A stretch of DNA of 64,000 nt, from positions 18,723 to 82,722 of the forward strand of contig DATKPA010000037.1 in NCBI GenBank assembly GCA_035524355.1. Direction: 5' to 3'. Shown here in pieces: positions 15,263-26,525 of this stretch. This DNA comes from Phycisphaerae bacterium. Its GTDB lineage: Bacteria > Planctomycetota > Phycisphaerae > WQYP01. Made by a program: the position numbers and the translations under genes. The notes under the pieces were generated by a model that saw only the letters and a list, made by a program, of their open reading frames with translations, ran no database searches and was not told where the DNA came from. The stretch's first letter is position 1, and each line of letters opens with the position of its first letter.

Positions 15263-15484
15263 AGGTGTCCCATCGCCACCAACCTCGACCTCGACGACAA
15301 ACTCGTTACCAAAGTCGTCAAAATCGGAAAATTCAAGTCCAAAAAGGCAGCCGTCAACGCCGCATTGGACGAATACGTCCGCCGCCACAGCCAGGCCGCC
15401 ATCCTCGAATTGGCCGGCACAATCGATTACGACGAAGACTACGACTACAAAAAACTTCGCACCCGCAAGAGCTTCAAGCGATGA
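15263..15484 (+). CDS. vapB: type II antitoxin, VapB/DUF2191-like
   Basis: …IATNLDLDDKLVTKVVKIGKFKSKKAAVNAALDEYVR…; strong RBS AAAGGAGG at ~15250 but no in-frame ATG/GTG follows (frame has ATC at 15266); upstream TTG at 15215 would give 89 aa. Start uncertain. Confidence 0.55.
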   Translation, partial: RCPIATNLDLDDKLVTKVVKIGKFKSKKAAVNAALDEYVRRHSQAAILELAGTIDYDEDYDYKKLRTRKSFKR

Positions 15485-15891
15485 TCCTGATCGACACCTC
15501 CGTTTGGTCCCTTGGCCTGAGACGCCGTCGGCGTGACTTAAATCCCGTCGAAGTCCGCGCCTATTACGCTTGGGAAACCCTCCTGAACCGGGGGGAAGCC
15601 TCCATCATCGGCCCTGTGCGACAGGAGGTTCTCTCCGGAATTTCCTCACGTCCCAAATTCGATGCTCTTGCGTCACGGCTCGCTCTGATCGACGACCTCC
15701 ATCTCCCACGCGATGCCTTTATCCGAGCCGCCGAGTTTTACAACATCTGCAAATCCCACGGCATCACCCCGGAAACAGTCGACATGACGATATGCGCAGC
15801 GGCGGATCTTCACGGCACCCCCATTTTCACGACTGATCCCGATTTTCCACAATATGCACAGCATCTCCCCATCTCGCTCTTCCGCTTTTGA
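15481..15891 (+). CDS. vapC: type II toxin VapC (PIN-domain ribonuclease)
   Basis: MILIDTSVW... PIN N-terminal Asp, ...ICAAADLHGTPIFTTDPDF C-terminal acidic residues; ATGA overlap with vapB stop. Confidence 0.75.
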   Translation: MILIDTSVWSLGLRRRRRDLNPVEVRAYYAWETLLNRGEASIIGPVRQEVLSGISSRPKFDALASRLALIDDLHLPRDAFIRAAEFYNICKSHGITPETVDMTICAAADLHGTPIFTTDPDFPQYAQHLPISLFRF

Positions 15892-17624: not shown

Positions 17625-17960
17625 ATGCCTGCTGAATATAGCAGGAAGAGAAGCGATTGAGAATTGCTCAACTCCCTTTCCAGCACAAAAACGTGCGAAA
17701 AGTTCAACGGGCCGGGCAACACCTCCCCAGATCTGAGGCCCTCATTGGACCCCAATGAACGCCCGGATAGCCCGATAATCCCCGACTCTTCCTACCCGTC
17801 CCACGCGTCGCAAAACCTTTATCAGTTCCATATTGATCCCGCCCCATCAATCATTTATAAGCAATCCACCGTACTGCTGAGCTGATGCTCCACGCTCTCC
17901 CGGACGCGCTCCGGGCTGGCGATTGTCGCGTCCAATTTGTCCCCCGCCAGAGGAACACCG

Positions 17961-20900
17961 ATGGCCCGCACCCGCACCACCTTCCCCCACCGCATCCTCC
18001 TCGACTCCCTCGAATCCCGTCTCCTCCTCTCCCAAACCCCGCTCCCCATCACTGTCTCCTTCAGCAACACCACCATCTCCAGCGAAACCACCCCCGGCCA
18101 GACCGCCCCCTCCTTCTCCACCGGCACCGACTTCCGCTACGCCAGCACCACCGCCCCCAACGCCATCGCCGCCATCACCCGCACCTTCACCATCACCAAT
18201 ACCTCCAACGCCACCCTCAACTTCGGCAACGTCACCCTCTCCGGCTCCAACGCCGCAGACTTCTCCATCACCTCCACACTCCCCGCCTCCCTCGCCGCCA
18301 ACTCCCCAGCCAACCTCACCATCGCCTTCACCCCCTCCGCCACCGGCACCCGCACCGCCACCCTCACCATCCCCGGCACCACCGAGAACGACCAACCCTT
18401 CCTCTTCGACATCCAGGGCACCGGACTCGCCACCACCAATCTCCCCGATGGCCTCGAAATCGGTACCACCCAATCCGGCACCGGCAACGCCTCCGCCGTT
18501 AACGGCGACATCCTCCAAATGTCCTACTCCGGATACCTCTTCAACGGCTCTCTCTTCGACGCCACCTCCCTCCACAACAACACACCCCTCACCGTCCGCC
18601 TCGACAACGCCACCAACCACCCCTACCTCTACAACGACCAGTATTACAGCTCCAGCTACGACTTCCCCGTCATCGACGGCTGGGAAGAAGGCCTCCAGGG
18701 CATGAAACTCGGCGAATCCCGCGTCCTCATCATCCCCTCCTCCCTCGGCTACGGCCACACCGGCTCCCCGCCCACCATCCCCGCCGACGCCCCACTCCTC
18801 TTCGAAACCACCCTCAACCAGCTCTACTACTCCCCCCAGATCGGCGTCACCGGCAACAGCACCTACATCGCCCCCAACTCCACCTCCCCCAACACCACCG
18901 ACGGCACCGACTTCGGCTCACTCCCCCAGGGCCAAACCTCCATCACCCGCAACTTCACCCTCAACGACTACTCCTCCGCCGACAACGCCAACGGCACCCC
19001 AATCGACGGCCTCACCTTCTCCGGCCTCTCCGGCTTCTCCTTCTCCGGCACCAACGCCTCCGACTTCTCCATCTCCCAGGTCCAGGGACAGAACGGCGTC
19101 TACGCCATCACCTTCAACCCCACCGGCCTCGGCCTCCGCTCCGCCACCGTCCACGTCCACTCCAACGACCTCTCCTTCCCCGACTACTCCTTCGCCATCC
19201 AGGGCACCAACCCCCGCGCCTTCTCCATCTCCGCCAATTCCCTCACCATCCCCTCCGGCTCCACCAACCCCTCCTCCGACAACTTCACCGATTTCAGCTA
19301 CCAATCCACCTCCTTCTCCGACCCCGATACCCGCACCTTCACCATCACCAACACCGGCACCGGAAACCTCACCCTCGGCAACATCTCCTTCGCCGGCGCC
19401 AACCCTTCCGACTTCACCATCTCCTCCCCGCCCGCAAAATCCTCCCTCGCCCCCAACGAATCCACCTCCTTCTCCGTCCAGTTCAACCCCACCACCACCG
19501 GCACCCGCGCCGCCATCGTCTCCATCGCCACCGATGACCCCACCGGGCCCTACTCCTTCGCCATCGACGGCACCGGCGTCGCCACCACCTCCACCACCGG
19601 CGGCATCCAGGTCGCCACAATCCAGTCCGGCAACGCAAACGTTACCGCCGTCAACGGAGACATCCTCCAGATCGCCTATACCGGCCGATTCCTCACCGGC
19701 GGCTCCTTCACCGGCACCACCGCCTTCCGCCTCGACAACGCCACCGGCCATCCCTACGTCGCCAACGACCAGTCCGACGCCAGCACCAAAAACGCCTACG
19801 ACTCCGTCCAGATCGACGGCTTCGAAAACGGCCTCCAGGGCATCAAACCCGGCGAATCCCGCCTCCTCTTCCTCCCCGCCTCCCAAACCACCGGCGCCAC
19901 CGCCAACGGCTCACTCCTCCCCGCCGAACCCCTCCTCTACCTCGTCACCTGCACCGGCCTCTCCTACTCCCCACAGATCAGCATCACCGGCAACAGCATC
20001 TCCATCCCCAACGGCGCCGCCAACCCCAACACCGCCGACGGAACCGACTTCGGCACCCTCACCGGCACCCAGCAAAGCGTCTCCCACACCTTCGACCTCC
20101 TCGACAACAGCGCCGCCGACGACGCCTCCGGCAACATCCTCCACAACCTCTCCTTCGCCGGCGCTTCCGCCATCACGTTCACCGGCCCCAACGCCGCCGA
20201 CTTCTCCGCCGCCGCCGTCCCCGATCAACCCGGCCTCTATACCATCACCTACCAGCCCACCGGCAACGCCTCCCTTTCCACCGCCACCGTCCACTTCCCC
20301 AGCAACGACCCCCTGAATCCCGACTACACCTTCACCATCCAGGGTGCCAACAACGCCTCCCCCGACCTCCAACTCACCCTCGGCACCCCCACCCTCCCCG
20401 CCGGACAGGTCCCCACCAACACCAACAAATCCGTCTCCCTCCCCATCACCATCACCAACATCGGCGCCGCCGCTGCTGCCGCTTCCCCAACCTCCGACAT
20501 CCAAATCTTCGCCCACAACACCATCACCGGCGCCAGCACACTCCTCCTCTCCACCTCCGTTCCCGTCTCCCTCACCCTCAACGGCTCCGTCTCCTACACC
20601 TTCTCCCCGCTGATCCCCCTCACGCTCCCCACCGGCACCTACTCCCTCCTCGCCACCATCAACCAGTCCAACGCCATCGCCGATCCCAACCCCACCAACA
20701 ACTCCGCCACCACCTCCCAAACATTCTCCGTCCTCGCCGTCTACAACAACCTCACCGCCCACATCCTCTCCTCCACCCTCCCCAAATCCCTCCTCGCCAA
20801 AACCCCCATCGCCGGCAACATCACCTTCAACATCGTCAACGCCGGCACGCTCCCCCTCTCCAAAACCCAGCAGGCCACCGTCACCCTCCTCGCACACAAC

Positions 20901-21509
20901 ACCGCCACCAACGTCGAAACCCCGCTCCTCACCCTCCCGCCCCAATCCCTCTCCCTCCTCAAACCCGGCGCCAACATCAAGATCACCACCCCCATCAAAC
21001 TCCCCGCCGGACTCCCCGCCGCCACCTACTCCTTCGTCGCCCGCATCGCGCCCACCCCCAAACTCGCCGAATCCAGCACCACCGACAACTCCATCGCCAG
21101 CACCTTCACCCTCACCGTCTATCCCCCCACCTACGACCTCACCGGCACCCTCCTCTCCTCCACCCTCAAATCCTCCCCCAAAGGCGTCGCCGGCAACCTC
21201 GCCCTCACCCTCCGCTCCCTCGGCAACGTCAACCTCGCCGCCAACCAGCAGGCCCAGCTCCAAATCATCGCCCACCCCACCACCGCCCTGAACACCGCCT
21301 CCGACATCATCCTCACCACCACTACCGTCAAACTCGCCAACCTCGCCCCGCAATCCCCCATCAACTTCAACCTCCCCATCAACTACACCAAACCCCTCCA
21401 CGCCGGCACCTATCAGATCGAAGTCCGTATCGTCACCACCCCGCACCTCGCCGAAACCAACACCCTCAACAACCTCCTCACCCAGAAGGCCCTCATCCTT
21501 CTCGCCTGA
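17961..21509 (+). CDS. large secreted repeat protein with two FKBP-type peptidyl-prolyl isomerase-like domains and choice-of-anchor-D-like repeats
   Basis: GAGGAA RBS 6 nt before ATG at 17961; N-terminal [24 protein letters not shown] leader; two modules [22 protein letters not shown]…[34 protein letters not shown] and [18 protein letters not shown]…[22 protein letters not shown] (FKBP fold signature); repeated NxT-rich ~100 aa units (…NASDFSIS…, …NPSDFTIS…). Confidence 0.6.
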   Translation: [1182 protein letters not shown]

Positions 21510-22014
21510 TCTGCGCCCCCCCCAAAGCCCGGCGGCTACCGCCGCCGCGGCGCATCCCCTCCTCGCTCCATTCCCTGCTACTCGTCCACATCAAAAAGAT
21601 CATCGAGCGAATCGTCGGCCCTATCCGTTTGCCCGTCGCGCAATCAATGTCCTAAAAACGCCCCAAAGGGGCCCACGAAAATAGCCAGGGGTGACCAACG
21701 GGAACCCCTGGTAACAATCGCAAAAAAATGTATTGAGCCCCAACGGGGCGATCGAACCTCTCTCGCAAGACATTGGCAACCCGAAGACCAACACCCTCGT
21801 CCGCGCCAAAGCCACCCTCAACATCCAATCCACCCGCCGCACCTTCCTCGGCAACTGGTACTGGCACCTCCCCAACGACACCAGAGAACCCAACTCTTCC
21901 CTCGACATCCCAGGCCTCCCCAACCTCACCGAAATGCTGGGCGCTCTCGCAAAATGACTACCGCGCGGATCAAAAGTTTAGCGGCGTTGCAACGCAACGC
22001 CTTTAAGCGAGTGG

Positions 22015-24237
22015 TCACTTATCCTCGTCAAATGGATTGTCGAGCGAACCATCTGCCCAACCTCTGTCGCGCCGACCGATCGCCTCCCGAAAGGCGTTTA
22101 TTTCTCGAGCGAACTCGTTCTTCAGCGAATTTGCTCCCGCATCGTCCCTATTCGCAAGTTCGCCTAGAACCGACTCAACATCGGCAACATTTGAAAACGA
22201 TTCAACACTTCCCAGCTCAACCCTCCATCTTGTTCTGGGCCGACCTGTTGAATGCACTGCACTGAGAAGACCGCGCAGGAAAAGTAAAGTTCCTCGCGGT
22301 GATGCAATCATCTCCTTCGCAAACGCCCTGGCCTCGGTGTCACCGCCAAGCCTTTTCCAATTCCACAAGTAGAATCCAAGCCGTTCGTCAGATTTTTCCA
22401 GCCGCCCGTCCTTGGCGGCGGATTCCAGTCTCGCTAAGCAAATTTTCTTCGCCTCGACCAAATCGTGCTCATCTAGTAGGTTATCCTTATCGCTTTTGTC
22501 ATCACGCTCCCTGCGGCGCTGTTCATACGCCACGGTGTCAATCGGTAAAAACATGCCTGTTGTGGCAGCAATCGCTCCTAGAAGTGCCTTGCTGCGAACA
22601 GTTGCATTCTTTTCTCGCCTGAGCCAGAACAGGACAATTCGATGCGCCGTCACAGACGGCGAAAGGCCGAATAAGCCTCCGTCACCCGCGGGAAGATCGT
22701 CCCCCACGTCAAAGAGAGCGGTCGCAAAATTTCTTGCGAGAGAGACATCCAACTCGGTCTTGTATGCGTCCAATCTATCCATGAGCGGAACGAGCTGACC
22801 GTTCCTCTTAATGAGGGTCATCACTTTCCTAATCGACTGTTCATCAACCGACGCGGCAACTACGTTATCGATGAGAGCAAGCGGAATTTCTCCCTCTGGC
22901 AATGTCATAACGAAATATCGCGGGAACATCTTTTCGCTGCATACGCGGAGGGTGCGCTCCCATTCGTCATCCCAGTCCCGTCCATACCCTCCAAGCCGCG
23001 GGAACAATTGTGGCAATAGGCTGCTGACTGCCTCACGATCATCTGCATTGACGGATTCCAACATCTGATCCATCTTCTTCTTTCGTTCATCCGTCCTATC
23101 TTTCCTGAACGCCGCATCCATTGCGGTCTCAACAAAAATATCACGACATTTCGCAATCGCCGAATATACCTCCGGAACGAACACGCGGAGGACCTCTATT
23201 GCAATTAGATCGATCACATTTACTTCCAACTTGTGTTGCTGGACAAACAAGCCGACCGTGAATGAAAAGCTCGCAAGTACCCTGTGGACATCCCGCATCG
23301 TTCCCAAGAACGGCTGGATCCCGTGGTGAAATATCCGCTCCCAGCGGTCCCCGTCGAAATTACGCGTTGCGTCCTGTATCTTCCCAAGAATCTCGTCCAA
23401 TCCATTAAAGAATAATTTGTTCAACTTTGTTTGCTCTACGTCCGGCAAATCTAGGCCAACTTGGACAATTTTCTCCATGAACTCTCGCCCGGTGGCCCCT
23501 GAAAACCCATCGAGCGCCGTCTCAACAACAGCCCTGTCAAACATGAGGAGAAATATAATATTGGGAAAATCAGCGTTCGCCTTAACAAGTCGAAAGAGCA
23601 ATCGAATTTCCTCTCTCGTCAAACGATCTACGTCGTCCATAATTACGAGGAGGGGCTGACTCATGGAGCGAAGCGCAATGGCAATTTCGCCTTTTAGTTT
23701 TTGCAAACTTGGTGAGTTATGCTGCGCAGCCCCCGCCGCTTCTTTCAAAACGTCCGCAGACCCCCTCGCGCCTTTCTCAACTGCATCTGAAAAAAGAGGT
23801 AGAATCGGAACCCCAACAATCTTGCTTGCCTGACCAATGTACTTAAAGCTCGTAGCGCCTAAAAACAACAAACTCGCATACCGATGCCATTTCTCCGCCA
23901 GCCTCTCACCATCCCTTACATTCACGCTTACCGCCTTGCCGACCTCCTCAAAAAATGCACCCATCAAGCGATCCGACCCCGTCCATGCCCACGGATTGAA
24001 CTCAATTACAGAAACGGGCTTTTCGGCCTTCTGCAAAAACTCCAATACCATGTTCTTTGTTGACGACTTCCCGATCCCCCACTTGCCATACACCGCAAGG
24101 ACCAAACTCTCTTCGTCGCGCCAAGCCGAAATAGCATTGGCCAAGGCCAATGCGAAACTTCCACGCCCGAGCATATCTTCCGCTAATGACCCAATGGGGT
24201 GGTCGGAGGACAGACGTGAAGTATTGGCTTCTGTCAT
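22015..24237 (-). CDS. KAP-family P-loop NTPase
   Basis: Walker A LAVYGKWGIGKSST near N-terminus after DxL…FA…LA…I motif, Walker B LLVIMDDVDR, long helical C-terminal region; lower GC than flanks. Confidence 0.75.
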   Translation of the reverse strand: MTEANTSRLSSDHPIGSLAEDMLGRGSFALALANAISAWRDEESLVLAVYGKWGIGKSSTKNMVLEFLQKAEKPVSVIEFNPWAWTGSDRLMGAFFEEVGKAVSVNVRDGERLAEKWHRYASLLFLGATSFKYIGQASKIVGVPILPLFSDAVEKGARGSADVLKEAAGAAQHNSPSLQKLKGEIAIALRSMSQPLLVIMDDVDRLTREEIRLLFRLVKANADFPNIIFLLMFDRAVVETALDGFSGATGREFMEKIVQVGLDLPDVEQTKLNKLFFNGLDEILGKIQDATRNFDGDRWERIFHHGIQPFLGTMRDVHRVLASFSFTVGLFVQQHKLEVNVIDLIAIEVLRVFVPEVYSAIAKCRDIFVETAMDAAFRKDRTDERKKKMDQMLESVNADDREAVSSLLPQLFPRLGGYGRDWDDEWERTLRVCSEKMFPRYFVMTLPEGEIPLALIDNVVAASVDEQSIRKVMTLIKRNGQLVPLMDRLDAYKTELDVSLARNFATALFDVGDDLPAGDGGLFGLSPSVTAHRIVLFWLRREKNATVRSKALLGAIAATTGMFLPIDTVAYEQRRRERDDKSDKDNLLDEHDLVEAKKICLARLESAAKDGRLEKSDERLGFYLWNWKRLGGDTEARAFAKEMIASPRGTLLFLRGLLSAVHSTGRPRTRWRVELGSVESFSNVADVESVLGELANRDDAGANSLKNEFAREINAFREAIGRRDRGWADGSLDNPFDEDK

Positions 24238-24900
24238 AATGCTCTCCTGAAATGCAGCCCTCAACCGACCCGCACCGAGTTCGGACGTATTAAATTAGGC
24301 TGGAACCAAACAAAATGCAAACATTTTTATTTCAATTCTCGTCACGATTTGACACAATGGCACTATCTCCCACAGGAGACCTCTGACATGTGTGTTGTTC
24401 GCGTATTTCGATGGCACTCCTCTTCGCTCACCGCTTCATTACCCACCACCCTCCTCACCCCCACTCAATTCCAGAACAAAAAAGGGGTCAAACATATTTT
24501 TTGGGAGGCCTCCTTCCTCGACGTCGCTGATCGCGCCCCGCGCAAACCGTGACCTTACGATGCCGACATCGTCAATCATCTGGAGAACCCGACCGCGCCC
24601 TGCACCACAATCTCCGGGGTGGCCCTCCAAATATCCAGAATTCTATTGCATTCACCCACAACCCGACTATAATCCTAACATAACGTCGACGCCGGCCGCA
24701 CGATCAAAGGGAGGGGACCCCCATGCCATCACCCGCCAATTCCCCATTCACTCATTCACTGACTCGCTTATTCGCTTACTCACTACCCTCCATCCCACCT
24801 CCCATTGCGCCCCTCCCCCGTCCAGACCTGCAGCCCGTTGCACCCCTCCCAACCACTCCCGCCTCCCCCCTCTCCCCGAGCGCGCAGGGGGTGGCAAACA

Positions 24901-25095
24901 TTCTGAGGATCTTCAGCCAGCGCTATCAAAAACGCGGTTCTTCAACCCCGACTTCTGAGGATCTTCGGCACAACCCCCAAAAAACGCCCCTCCCCTTCCC
25001 GACTTCTGAGGTTCTTCGCCCCACCCCCTCAAAAACACGCTTCCACCCCTCCCCACATTCTGAATTCACTGATTCGCTTATTCTGAATTCCCCCA
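24901..25095. repeat. ~52-nt tandem repeat, 3+ copies (TTCTGAGGWTCTTC…CAAAAACGC…CCCGAC), flanked ~300 bp apart by two copies of TTCACTGAYTCGCTTATTC
   Basis: Units at 24901-24952, 24953-25003, 25004-~25057 read directly; second motif at ~24751-24775 and ~25066-25090. Confidence 0.65.
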
Positions 25096-25226
25096 ACCCC
25101 ACCCCCTCCCAAGCCGATAATCCCCCTATCCCCTCCGCTCCCAAACTCCCCCCTAGCCTTCCCCGCCCTTCTCGAAATACAATGAATCACGGCCAACGCC
25201 ACATCCGACGCCCGCAGGAGCCTGAC

Positions 25227-26525
25227 ATGAAGAAATCCGCACGCAACTTCCTGGTTCTTGCTTCCTGCTCCCTGCTTCTCGCGGCACTGCCCGCGCGCGC
25301 GGCCGACGTCCTCGCCCATTGGTCCTTCGACGAACTCGTCAACGATGGCCACGCCTTCGCGGATCTCCATGGGCCGTACAGGGCGCTCATCACGGATCAA
25401 TCGTCCGCCACCCTCGACGCCAGCAAGGATGTCCCCTTCGGAAAAGCCGTCACCCTCGGACCCGGCGGCACCGGCCTCTCCATCCCCGCCCTCCCCGGAA
25501 TCTACGACCACTCCTTCACCGTCGCCGCCTGGGTCAAGCTCGATGACGCCCACGAACGCAATTACCTCCTCGCAGACTGGGTGAAACCCAACGCCTATGC
25601 CTTCGGTTTCGACAACAGCAAAGTCATGGTCATGCTCCGCAACGAAAAGCTCGACAAGAATGCCCACACCACCGACATCGTCAGCGGCAAAAATCTCAAT
25701 GTGCCGATCTCGGCCGATGCCTGGCATCATGTGGCCTGGGTGTGGGACAAAACCGGCGCGAAGTCCGGAACCATGACCGTCTACCTCGACGGCAACAAGG
25801 CTGCCGAAGTCAATGCCACCGGGAAAGTTCCCGCAGTCATCGCGGAGAACCACCGCCCCGCCAGCATCGGGTACAAAGGGGACACCAAGAGCGCCTTCCA
25901 CGGCTCCGTCGATGAACTCTGGGTCTTCAACGATGCCCTCTCCGCCGAACAGGTCGGCAATTTGATGAAGTCCAATGACATCAACAACAACACGCAACTC
26001 GCCAACGCCGCGCCGGCCGCTGCACCCCCCGCCACGCCCACCACGCCGGCCAATACCACCGGCTCCGTTGACGCATCGGCTGCAGCGCCGGCGACACCCG
26101 CGAATGCGACCCCTGGGACGACCGCCACGCCGCCCGACAACAGCGTCGCGGCAGCGCCGCCGGCTCCGGGCGATGCCACCCCCGGCAATACCGGGGCTTC
26201 CGCTTCCAGCACGCCGCCGATGTTCTCGGTGAGCAGTTCCACGCTTGGCGCTGCGAATTCGGCACCGCCCACCACGCCCACCACGCCCGCCACGGCCAAG
26301 CCGAGCACGCCTGCGGCACCGCCCGCGCCGCCCTCGTTCACCGTGAGCCGCCCGACCACGCCCGTGACGCCGCTCGAGCCGATCGCGCCTGCCGCTCTCG
26401 CAGAGACGCCCGCGCCGCACTACACGCCGGCGCGGATCGCCGGGATCGTTGCCTCCGGCACCATGTCGCTCTCGCTCATCATCTTTCTCTTCTGGGCGGC
26501 GCAGGAACGCAGCAAAATGCGCTAG
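25227..26525 (+). CDS. secreted LamG/concanavalin-A-like lectin-domain protein with Pro/Thr/Ala-rich linker and C-terminal membrane anchor
   Basis: Signal peptide MKKSARNFLVLASCSLLLAALPARA; …FTVAAWVKLDD…WHHVAWVWDKTGAKSGTMTVYLDGNKAAE…FHGSVDELWVFNDALS LamG-type blocks; low-complexity PTPA tract; hydrophobic C-terminus IAGIVASGTMSLSLIIFLFW; start at internal Met (track ORF 24723.. carries non-coding-like N-extension over the repeat region). Confidence 0.65.
   Translation: MKKSARNFLVLASCSLLLAALPARAADVLAHWSFDELVNDGHAFADLHGPYRALITDQSSATLDASKDVPFGKAVTLGPGGTGLSIPALPGIYDHSFTVAAWVKLDDAHERNYLLADWVKPNAYAFGFDNSKVMVMLRNEKLDKNAHTTDIVSGKNLNVPISADAWHHVAWVWDKTGAKSGTMTVYLDGNKAAEVNATGKVPAVIAENHRPASIGYKGDTKSAFHGSVDELWVFNDALSAEQVGNLMKSNDINNNTQLANAAPAAAPPATPTTPANTTGSVDASAAAPATPANATPGTTATPPDNSVAAAPPAPGDATPGNTGASASSTPPMFSVSSSTLGAANSAPPTTPTTPATAKPSTPAAPPAPPSFTVSRPTTPVTPLEPIAPAALAETPAPHYTPARIAGIVASGTMSLSLIIFLFWAAQERSKMR

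Follow-up and report, generated by a model that had tools for sequence, protein, structure and literature searches.

The stretch of DNA analyzed here (the window, 64,000 nt) is a part of an 89-kb contig from a metagenome-assembled genome of a member of the Phycisphaerae (Planctomycetota), and its proteins are deposited at NCBI as HUO08031-HUO08040. At positions 22015-24237 of the minus strand it carries a pifA-like gene encoding a 740-aa P-loop NTPase of the KAP family (NCBI HUO08038.1), identified from the list of open reading frames (ORFs) and by Pfam, the PADLOC PifA model and hhalign. The only long ORF between the two neighboring genes, 22015-24264 on the minus strand, is uninterrupted according to the ORF list and its translation, and has two candidate starts, TTG at 24264 (749 aa) and ATG at 24237 (740 aa). 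The shorter form is favored, since the Shine-Dalgarno sequence AGGAGA, seen by direct reading at 24243-24248 of the minus strand, is situated 5 nt upstream of this ATG; the same 740-aa form is annotated in NCBI and ENA. The preliminary description of this locus had reported a single gene for a 741-aa KAP NTPase; the single intact KAP ORF is confirmed (133 bits in Pfam), while the length has to be corrected by one residue.

On the left, the gene is preceded by the gene of a 1190-aa secreted FKBP/CARDB protein (17937-21509), and on the right it is followed by the gene of a LamG protein with a signal peptide (25227-26525). Both neighbors are on the plus strand, and the KAP gene is thus indeed on the opposite strand, as had been described, being transcribed divergently from the host LamG gene. 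The flanks measure 505 bp (21510-22014) and 989 bp (24238-25226), close to the approximately 500 and 960 bp of non-coding DNA given for them earlier, but the 3' flank contains an annotated hypothetical ORF of 74 aa (21733-21957, plus strand, HUO08037.1).

The protein matches the Pfam family KAP_NTPase (PF07693) with 133.3 bits against a cut-off of 20 (E-value 1.4e-38), with residues 34-339 covering positions 1-292 of the 293 in the model. Among defense models, by far the best match is the PifA hidden Markov model (HMM) of PADLOC (PDLC02361; E-value 5.9e-84, 281 bits), in which residues 15-729 are aligned with model positions 2-715, that is, 714 of 720. The next-best PADLOC models, PDC-S20 (6.5e-16) and QatA (1.8e-9), are far weaker. 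PifA of the F plasmid, whose reference sequence was taken from an IncFIA plasmid, downstream of pifC, itself scores 963 bits with the same HMM, while other environmental homologs score similarly to the window protein, which therefore is a distant member of the family and not an ortholog of the plasmid gene. In a BLASTP comparison with F PifA, residues 12-358 show 27% identity (E-value 1e-24), and the C-terminal segment is faint. The hhalign alignment of a 47-sequence family profile with F PifA comprises 671 columns and spans PifA positions 14-730 (probability 99.9%, E-value 4e-32), and therefore the homology extends through the non-NTPase half too.

The Walker A motif (GKWGIGKS, residues 51-58) and the Walker B motif (IMDDVDR, residues 199-205, or VIMDDVDR, 198-205) fit the KAP patterns GxxGxGK[ST] and hhhhDDxDR, respectively, and are formed by columns invariant in the 47 homologs. 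Moreover, the protein retains all 39 columns that are invariant in the family, among them G51, W53, G54, G56, K57, S59, D201, D202, D204 and R205. The window protein and F PifA have almost the same length (740 and 741 aa, respectively) and the same spacing between Walker A and Walker B, 147 residues, and both are products of single genes lacking an enzymatic effector domain. Neither of them has a hydrophobic segment in the insert between the Walker motifs, the highest 19-residue Kyte-Doolittle mean in the insert of the window protein being 1.03; transmembrane (TM) helices inserted into the NTPase domain or adjacent to it are typical of the KAP family (Aravind et al. 2004), but PifA is an accepted KAP member without them (PMC13001434). 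At the sequence level, the window protein has the KAP and PifA features that were considered, save for the TM insert, absent from PifA as well, and the pifC operon. By homology the gene is assigned to an already known defense type, PifA, and not to a new system; the preliminary description had missed that the KAP protein belongs to the PifA family specifically. We consider it probable that the locus holds one horizontally acquired, intact pifA-family gene, predicted to act most likely as a stand-alone anti-phage defense.

The gene deviates strongly from its surroundings in composition. Its GC content is 0.512, while 1136 other windows of 2223 nt from the same 64,000-nt sequence have a mean of 0.615 (standard deviation 0.018, minimum 0.577; z = -5.8). 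The GC content of third codon positions (GC3) is 0.555, compared to 0.72-0.91 in the neighboring genes, and the extreme strand skew of the host is much weaker inside the gene. As defined by composition profiles, GC3 and GC3 skew, the compositionally foreign pocket (GC 0.512) spans approximately 21950-24600, comprising the gene together with approximately 65 nt on its downstream side and approximately 360 nt on its upstream side. The low GC content previously noted for 21510-25230 is real, as the sliding-window check shows, but it is confined to this shorter interval, and the outer flanks are host-like (GC 0.605 at 21510-21949 and 0.586 at 24601-25226, with a strong C-over-G bias, at a resolution of 100-300 nt). 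A similar deviation is observed throughout the family: in 70 loci whose flanks were sufficiently long, the GC content of the homolog is on average 7.9 points below that of its own flanks, being more than 3 points lower in 57 loci and more than 3 points higher in none, and therefore the "foreign pocket" is a property of the family. The closest database homolog is 43-45% identical to the window protein. Judging by these data, the pocket gene is probably horizontally acquired.

A composition so far from that of the host, combined with the long non-coding flanks of a lone gene, is also compatible with an inert passenger, that is, a recently transferred gene, unexpressed or non-functional in this host and decaying. 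An earlier turnover could be hinted at by a 42-nt stretch resembling the 3' end of the gene and situated 437 bp downstream of it. It forms a direct repeat (21580-21621 and 22017-22058, 74% identical), and its peptide, ending in ADDSLDDLFDVDE, corresponds to the last 14 codons of the gene itself, ending in ADGSLDNPFDEDK, with the stop codons in register (21578-21643 and 22015-22058, respectively); several tblastn matches of homologs also land in the 3' flank. As a relic of an older pifA allele, this stretch was rejected as unproven: when the six-frame translation was searched, the family profile had no match on the minus strand, and the best score, -1.0 bits, is reached by 8 of 400 random segments of the window. 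On the other hand, the 740-codon ORF is intact, with every invariant family residue in place and a good Shine-Dalgarno sequence, and the identical sequence of the gene has been recovered from independent assemblies, the other contigs with window proteins coming from the same strain. Thus, an inert passenger is very unlikely, and an intact defense gene is the better description of the pocket.

The AlphaFold2 model built with the family alignment has a pLDDT of 87.8 and a pTM of 0.82, the sole disordered stretch being residues 141-172, within the insert between Walker A and Walker B. The C-terminal half (approximately residues 361-740) is predicted to be an all-helical domain, with a pLDDT of 87.9 when residues 361-740 are modeled alone. 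No solved structure matches the family by sequence. The best fold matches of the whole model are the RdrA rings of RADAR (E-value about 1e-5, TM-score 0.27-0.31), followed by Orc1/Cdc6, subunits of the RFC clamp loader and BrxC, while the C-terminal domain alone has no significant match in PDB (best E-value 0.014) and only weakly resembles TPR-like or other helical repeats. The identity of homologs to the window protein is approximately 50% in the NTPase domain, approximately 30% in the C-terminal half and 25% in the insert; the architecture is that of a conserved engine and a variable domain. Some homologs (P0003, P0005, P0006, P0033, P0051, P0056) carry additional domains, either a C-terminal HHH_3 (PF12836) or PF10049, a PF10049-bearing protein being named YuzE by one source (JGI). 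These fusions may hint at contact with nucleic acids in a part of the family.

The other known systems resemble the window gene to a lesser degree. RdrA of RADAR (PDB 8hr8, 8hra, 8fnt, 8fnu), the best Foldseek match, is a ring-forming defense ATPase of similar size, but in addition to the low TM-score its identity is 10-13%, the C-terminal domain modeled alone does not significantly match RdrA either, and the pocket contains neither a gene for the RdrB adenosine deaminase nor any other gene. QatA of QatABCD and PDC-S20 are KAP-type defense NTPases that match weakly over the P-loop region, but the match is partial (33.8 bits with the NCBIfam QatA model against a cut-off of 600), and no QatB, QatC or QatD is encoded nearby. 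The window gene is neither RADAR nor Qat. The STAND/Avs sensors and Tmn (the YobI family) also combine a P-loop switch with a variable helical-repeat sensor of phage proteins, but this is a functional analogy only, as the NTPase belongs to the KAP clade, not to STAND or YobI, and no effector domain is recognizable. Both Tmn and PifA are linked to the membrane (PMC13001434).

By analogy with F PifA and STAND-like NTPases, a mechanism may be proposed for the window protein, whose function is predicted. The fast-evolving C-terminal helical domain would recognize one or few phage proteins, and this recognition would switch the conserved NTPase module, probably via nucleotide-dependent oligomerization, proposed because, among solved structures, the closest folds are those of the ring-forming RdrA and of the Orc1/Cdc6 and clamp-loader ATPases. 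The activated complex would then damage membrane integrity, causing depolarization and leakage of nucleotides and ATP, and phage replication would stop at the cost of the infected cell (abortive infection). In the case of F PifA, which has no TM helices, membrane depolarization and nucleotide leakage are triggered by gp1.2 and the capsid protein gp10 of phage T7 (PMC13001434, PMC8594841; bioRxiv 10.1101/2024.10.26.620412). The gene has its own Shine-Dalgarno sequence and an AT-rich upstream region, where a possible promoter, TTGCAT-17 nt-TAATTT, is seen by eye at 24292-24320 of the minus strand; it is below the threshold of the consensus scan and was not reported by it, though the consensus may not be the one of the host phylum. 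In the composition profile, the GC content drops to 0.40 at 24300-24399, upstream of the gene.

Abortive infection with a membrane output is the weakest link of this explanation, because EF_KAP did not act in this way. In 2026, four KAP NTPases with unrelated C-terminal regions were reported to protect E. faecalis from phage (PMC13552941). Like the window protein, EF_KAP and three metagenomic KAP fusions are single proteins in which the KAP NTPase precedes a C-terminal region longer than 300 aa and without a known fold (PMC13552941). A real, though minor, possibility is a defense gene with a mode other than that of PifA, where the NTPase would regulate the C-terminal domain and replication would be blocked directly, without cell killing or a membrane lesion. 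This would agree with the data on EF_KAP, judged non-abortive because it protects equally at multiplicities of infection of 1 and 10, and requiring both the Walker B motif and the uncharacterized C-terminal region (only one of the four proteins was mutated) (PMC13552941). The window protein lacks a TM segment, and its C-terminal domain matches nothing solved, being similar to F PifA there at the profile level only. At the same time, over the 671 profile columns it is colinear with PifA except for about 10 residues at each end, and the Walker spacing is identical, whereas EF_KAP, compared here by its description, has TM helices at the N-terminus and inside the NTPase domain and an unrelated C-terminal region (PMC13552941). 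Moreover, approximately half of the sampled homologs have a hydrophobic hairpin in the insert, and therefore the family is tied to the membrane. In this hairpin form Walker A and Walker B are 171-179 residues apart, and one or two segments between them, with scores of 1.8-3.0, are sufficiently hydrophobic to form a TM hairpin, while in the hairpin-free form, to which the window protein and F PifA belong, the spacing is approximately 142-159, and there is no clear hydrophobic segment. A PifA-like membrane output is thus retained as the preferred mode for the window protein, by analogy.

The family proved to be very large. An exhaustive HMMER search yielded 3876 clusters (at 50% identity) with E-values of at most 1e-30, the closest being 45% identical. 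Of the first 600 candidate stretches in the GTDB species representatives, at least 466 were confirmed as relatives. More than 20 phyla are represented, such as Planctomycetota, Nitrospirota, Acidobacteriota, Verrucomicrobiota, Chloroflexota, Cyanobacteria, Proteobacteria, Firmicutes, Elusimicrobia, Omnitrophota and several lineages of the candidate phyla radiation, as well as archaea. Full-length PifA relatives are therefore distributed far more widely than Pif, which a DefenseFinder-based survey reported only in Proteobacteria (bioRxiv 10.1101/2024.10.26.620412). Phage genomes are nearly devoid of the family, with one weak partial match.

No conserved partner was found in 77 loci: when four ORFs on each side (at least 70 aa) were compared all against all, the largest neighbor family was present in 6 loci. 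The Pfam matches of the neighbors are very heterogeneous. Together with the full-length relationship to PifA established by PADLOC and hhalign, this supports, by homology, the candidate single-gene defense or abortive-infection module suggested in the preliminary description. The gene could also form a two-component system together with a small flanking gene, as gene callers predict two small ORFs here, one of 74 aa at 21733-21957 (plus strand) and the other of 54-67 aa at 24349-24552, and some homologs have a gene of a helix-turn-helix (HTH) protein immediately upstream. However, neither ORF matches any Pfam or NCBIfam family, no neighbor of at least 70 aa is retained in more than 6 of the 77 loci, and the 74-aa ORF, which runs convergently to the KAP gene, resembles the host in its C-rich composition and shares its cluster with no other protein. 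A two-component system is therefore extremely unlikely, and the single-gene reading is preferred.

Among the immediate neighbors of homologs, PADLOC models of mad2 (5 members), mad8 (3), type I methyltransferases, RmrA, AriA, PtuA, HEC-01A and capH are found. The contexts of seven close homologs with precomputed annotation were read. They comprise BREX fragments with Mrr and methyltransferases; Zeta toxin, PLD-SNF2, an Eco57I-type restriction-modification system, DarT-Macro, BilD/ThiF and ParE-Phd; a locus adjoining HigBA amid housekeeping genes; hypothetical genes including DUF4365 and Nmad3; an integrative and conjugative element (ICE) with TrwC, TrwB, HipA and an integrase; a homolog amid hypothetical genes near a resolvase; and one alone amid housekeeping genes. 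The HTH gene mentioned above is seen immediately upstream of some of the homologs. In addition, a full-length homolog from a Vibrio plasmid (32% identical) is flanked by IS3 and IS256 transposases and is situated beside an anti-phage dCTP deaminase. The earlier statement that KAP NTPases recur in defense islands holds for this family, as its loci include BREX, restriction-modification, DarTG and toxin-antitoxin neighborhoods and mobile elements. A conserved housekeeping context, named at the outset as evidence to the contrary, was not observed, because the homologs are in defense islands, in mobile elements, or alone without a conserved context.

The same contexts have to be weighed for a main role outside defense, that is, an NTPase of mobile elements or membrane signaling, involved in competition between elements, in maintenance of plasmids or ICEs, or in assembly of membrane complexes, with phage exclusion being incidental. 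The F-plasmid pifA adjoins the RepFIA replicon and is controlled by PifC/RepC, one homolog neighbors TrwB and the TrwC relaxase within an ICE, and the Vibrio homolog is on a conjugative plasmid; several homologs, including the window gene, stand alone amid housekeeping genes. PifA acts on a very narrow range of phages, and defense as its primary role has been questioned by the authors (PMC8594841, PMC13552941). In the window, however, nothing else resembling defense or mobility is found near the gene, with no mobile-element gene within 10 kb. Variable contexts rich in restriction-modification, toxin-antitoxin, DarTG and BREX genes, no fixed partner, low GC content and rapid evolution of the C-terminal half are what is usually seen with immune genes, and the family is practically missing from phage genomes. 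Taken together, this makes a main role outside defense unlikely, and anti-phage defense the probable function of the gene.

Several observations weigh against this reading. As was already mentioned, the phage range of PifA is narrow, and EF_KAP, the sole KAP NTPase tested for its mode of action, is non-abortive (PMC13552941). The window protein is only 20-27% identical to F PifA, the C-terminal halves being alignable at the profile level only. The locus differs from that of F PifA in lacking both the pifC repressor gene (the best tblastn match of F PifC in the window has an E-value of 0.06, and there is no upstream ORF) and a plasmid context, the host being a planctomycete. The Pif model of DefenseFinder also asks for PifC. 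The neighbors of the KAP gene are housekeeping or secreted-protein genes and do not form a defense island; further genes around it are ribF, scpB, yebC, aroK, the gene of a DEAD-box helicase and rsmH, and tRNA-Ala is 3.4 kb away, beyond two host genes. The contrast in defense genes is crude: the immediate neighbors of homologs match 237 PADLOC families, and genes 6.5-10 kb away match 130, the top-listed matches of this control being mostly redundant models of type II methyltransferases hit by just two proteins. We regard the enrichment of defense genes as supporting evidence and not as proof.

As for the acquisition itself, no ORF for an integrase, transposase or other recombinase, no target-site duplication and no terminal repeat mark an insertion at the locus, and no direct or inverted repeat of at least 10 nt joins the two borders of the pocket. 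No relative with an empty site was found: a genome with YebC at least 90% identical has no synteny with the window, and a metagenome scan for the empty site with the LamG protein gave distant matches only. Since no recombinase, border repeats or syntenic relative were found, the putative foreign origin of the gene is argued only from its composition and from the patchy phylogenetic distribution of the family.

PifA was one of the earliest abortive-infection proteins to be described. A broader generalization, which we put forward as rather unlikely, is that PifA, rather than being an oddity of enterobacterial plasmids, is the prototype of single-protein immune sensors that make up a very large, pan-prokaryotic family, with two modes of coupling to the membrane, by a TM hairpin in the NTPase domain or in a soluble form, and with a new helical sensor/effector fold. 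If so, the Phycisphaerae copy would be of the soluble type, in the unusual envelope of a planctomycete, possibly with an output other than the membrane lesion caused by the F-plasmid protein. The hairpin and hairpin-free forms provide comparative material on phage sensing and output by KAP proteins, and the C-terminal domain is without structural precedent. For genome annotation, the locus is ordinary, with one defense gene of a known type.

The flanks contain several other elements. Approximately 300 nt downstream of the KAP gene, the terminator scan and Rfam identify an element of two hairpins with the conserved linker GGCUAUUU (21659-21711, minus strand). Its second hairpin (21672-21660), followed by a U-run, looks like an intrinsic terminator in the terminator scan, and the whole element, with both stems formed, matches the small RNA Acido-Lenti-1 (RF01687) at 24.4 bits, below the gathering threshold of 37 (E-value 0.002-0.025). 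The Acido-Lenti-1 motif was described from Acidobacteria and Lentisphaerae, the latter belonging, like the host, to the PVC superphylum. This element may be the terminator of the KAP gene, while its membership in the acquired cassette is uncertain.

In the intergenic part before the LamG gene, local repeats absent elsewhere in the window are observed at 24746-25083. They include a 51-nt tandem repeat at 24947-25063 (2.2 copies), three copies of TTCTGAGGATCTTC, the third one at 24901, and ATTCACTGAYTCGCTTATTC at 24754 and 25064. The TTCTGAGGATCTTC and 51-nt repeats were considered as parts of the cassette and rejected, being local and situated in host-like sequence upstream of the LamG gene. 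The repeats fall in an unassembled gap, as the flanking Logan contigs end at 24732 and resume at approximately 25064.

The window also shows an unusual strand bias of the host. Up to 34 kb, the GC3 skew of the plus strand is between -0.6 and -0.9, with genes of both orientations; on the coding strand it is +0.79 for ribF (minus strand), -0.78 for scpB (plus), -0.90 for the FKBP gene (plus) and +0.62 for the DEAD-box gene (minus). At approximately 34.15 kb it sharply flips to about +0.4 (34-49 kb), becoming negative again near 49 kb. This bias far exceeds ordinary replication skew and is independent of gene orientation. The switches may reflect an inversion, a foreign block, a replication origin or terminus, or a mis-join in the assembled genome. 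No inverted repeats are found at the switch points (approximately 34150 and 49000). Exactly where the skew flips, a cluster encoding a PVC/Afp-like extracellular contractile injection system begins (35319-60534). It contains genes of the tail sheath (Phage_sheath_1/1C), Pvc16_N, an AAA+ ATPase with a winged-helix domain, a PA14/GLEYA protein and DUF6519, as well as several large ORFs without a Pfam match. Finally, just upstream of scpB, overlapping its annotated start, there is an ORF (15265-15891, plus strand) whose C-terminal part reads by eye like a candidate toxin domain of the PIN/VapC type (ILIDTSVWS and, further on, FTTDPDF).

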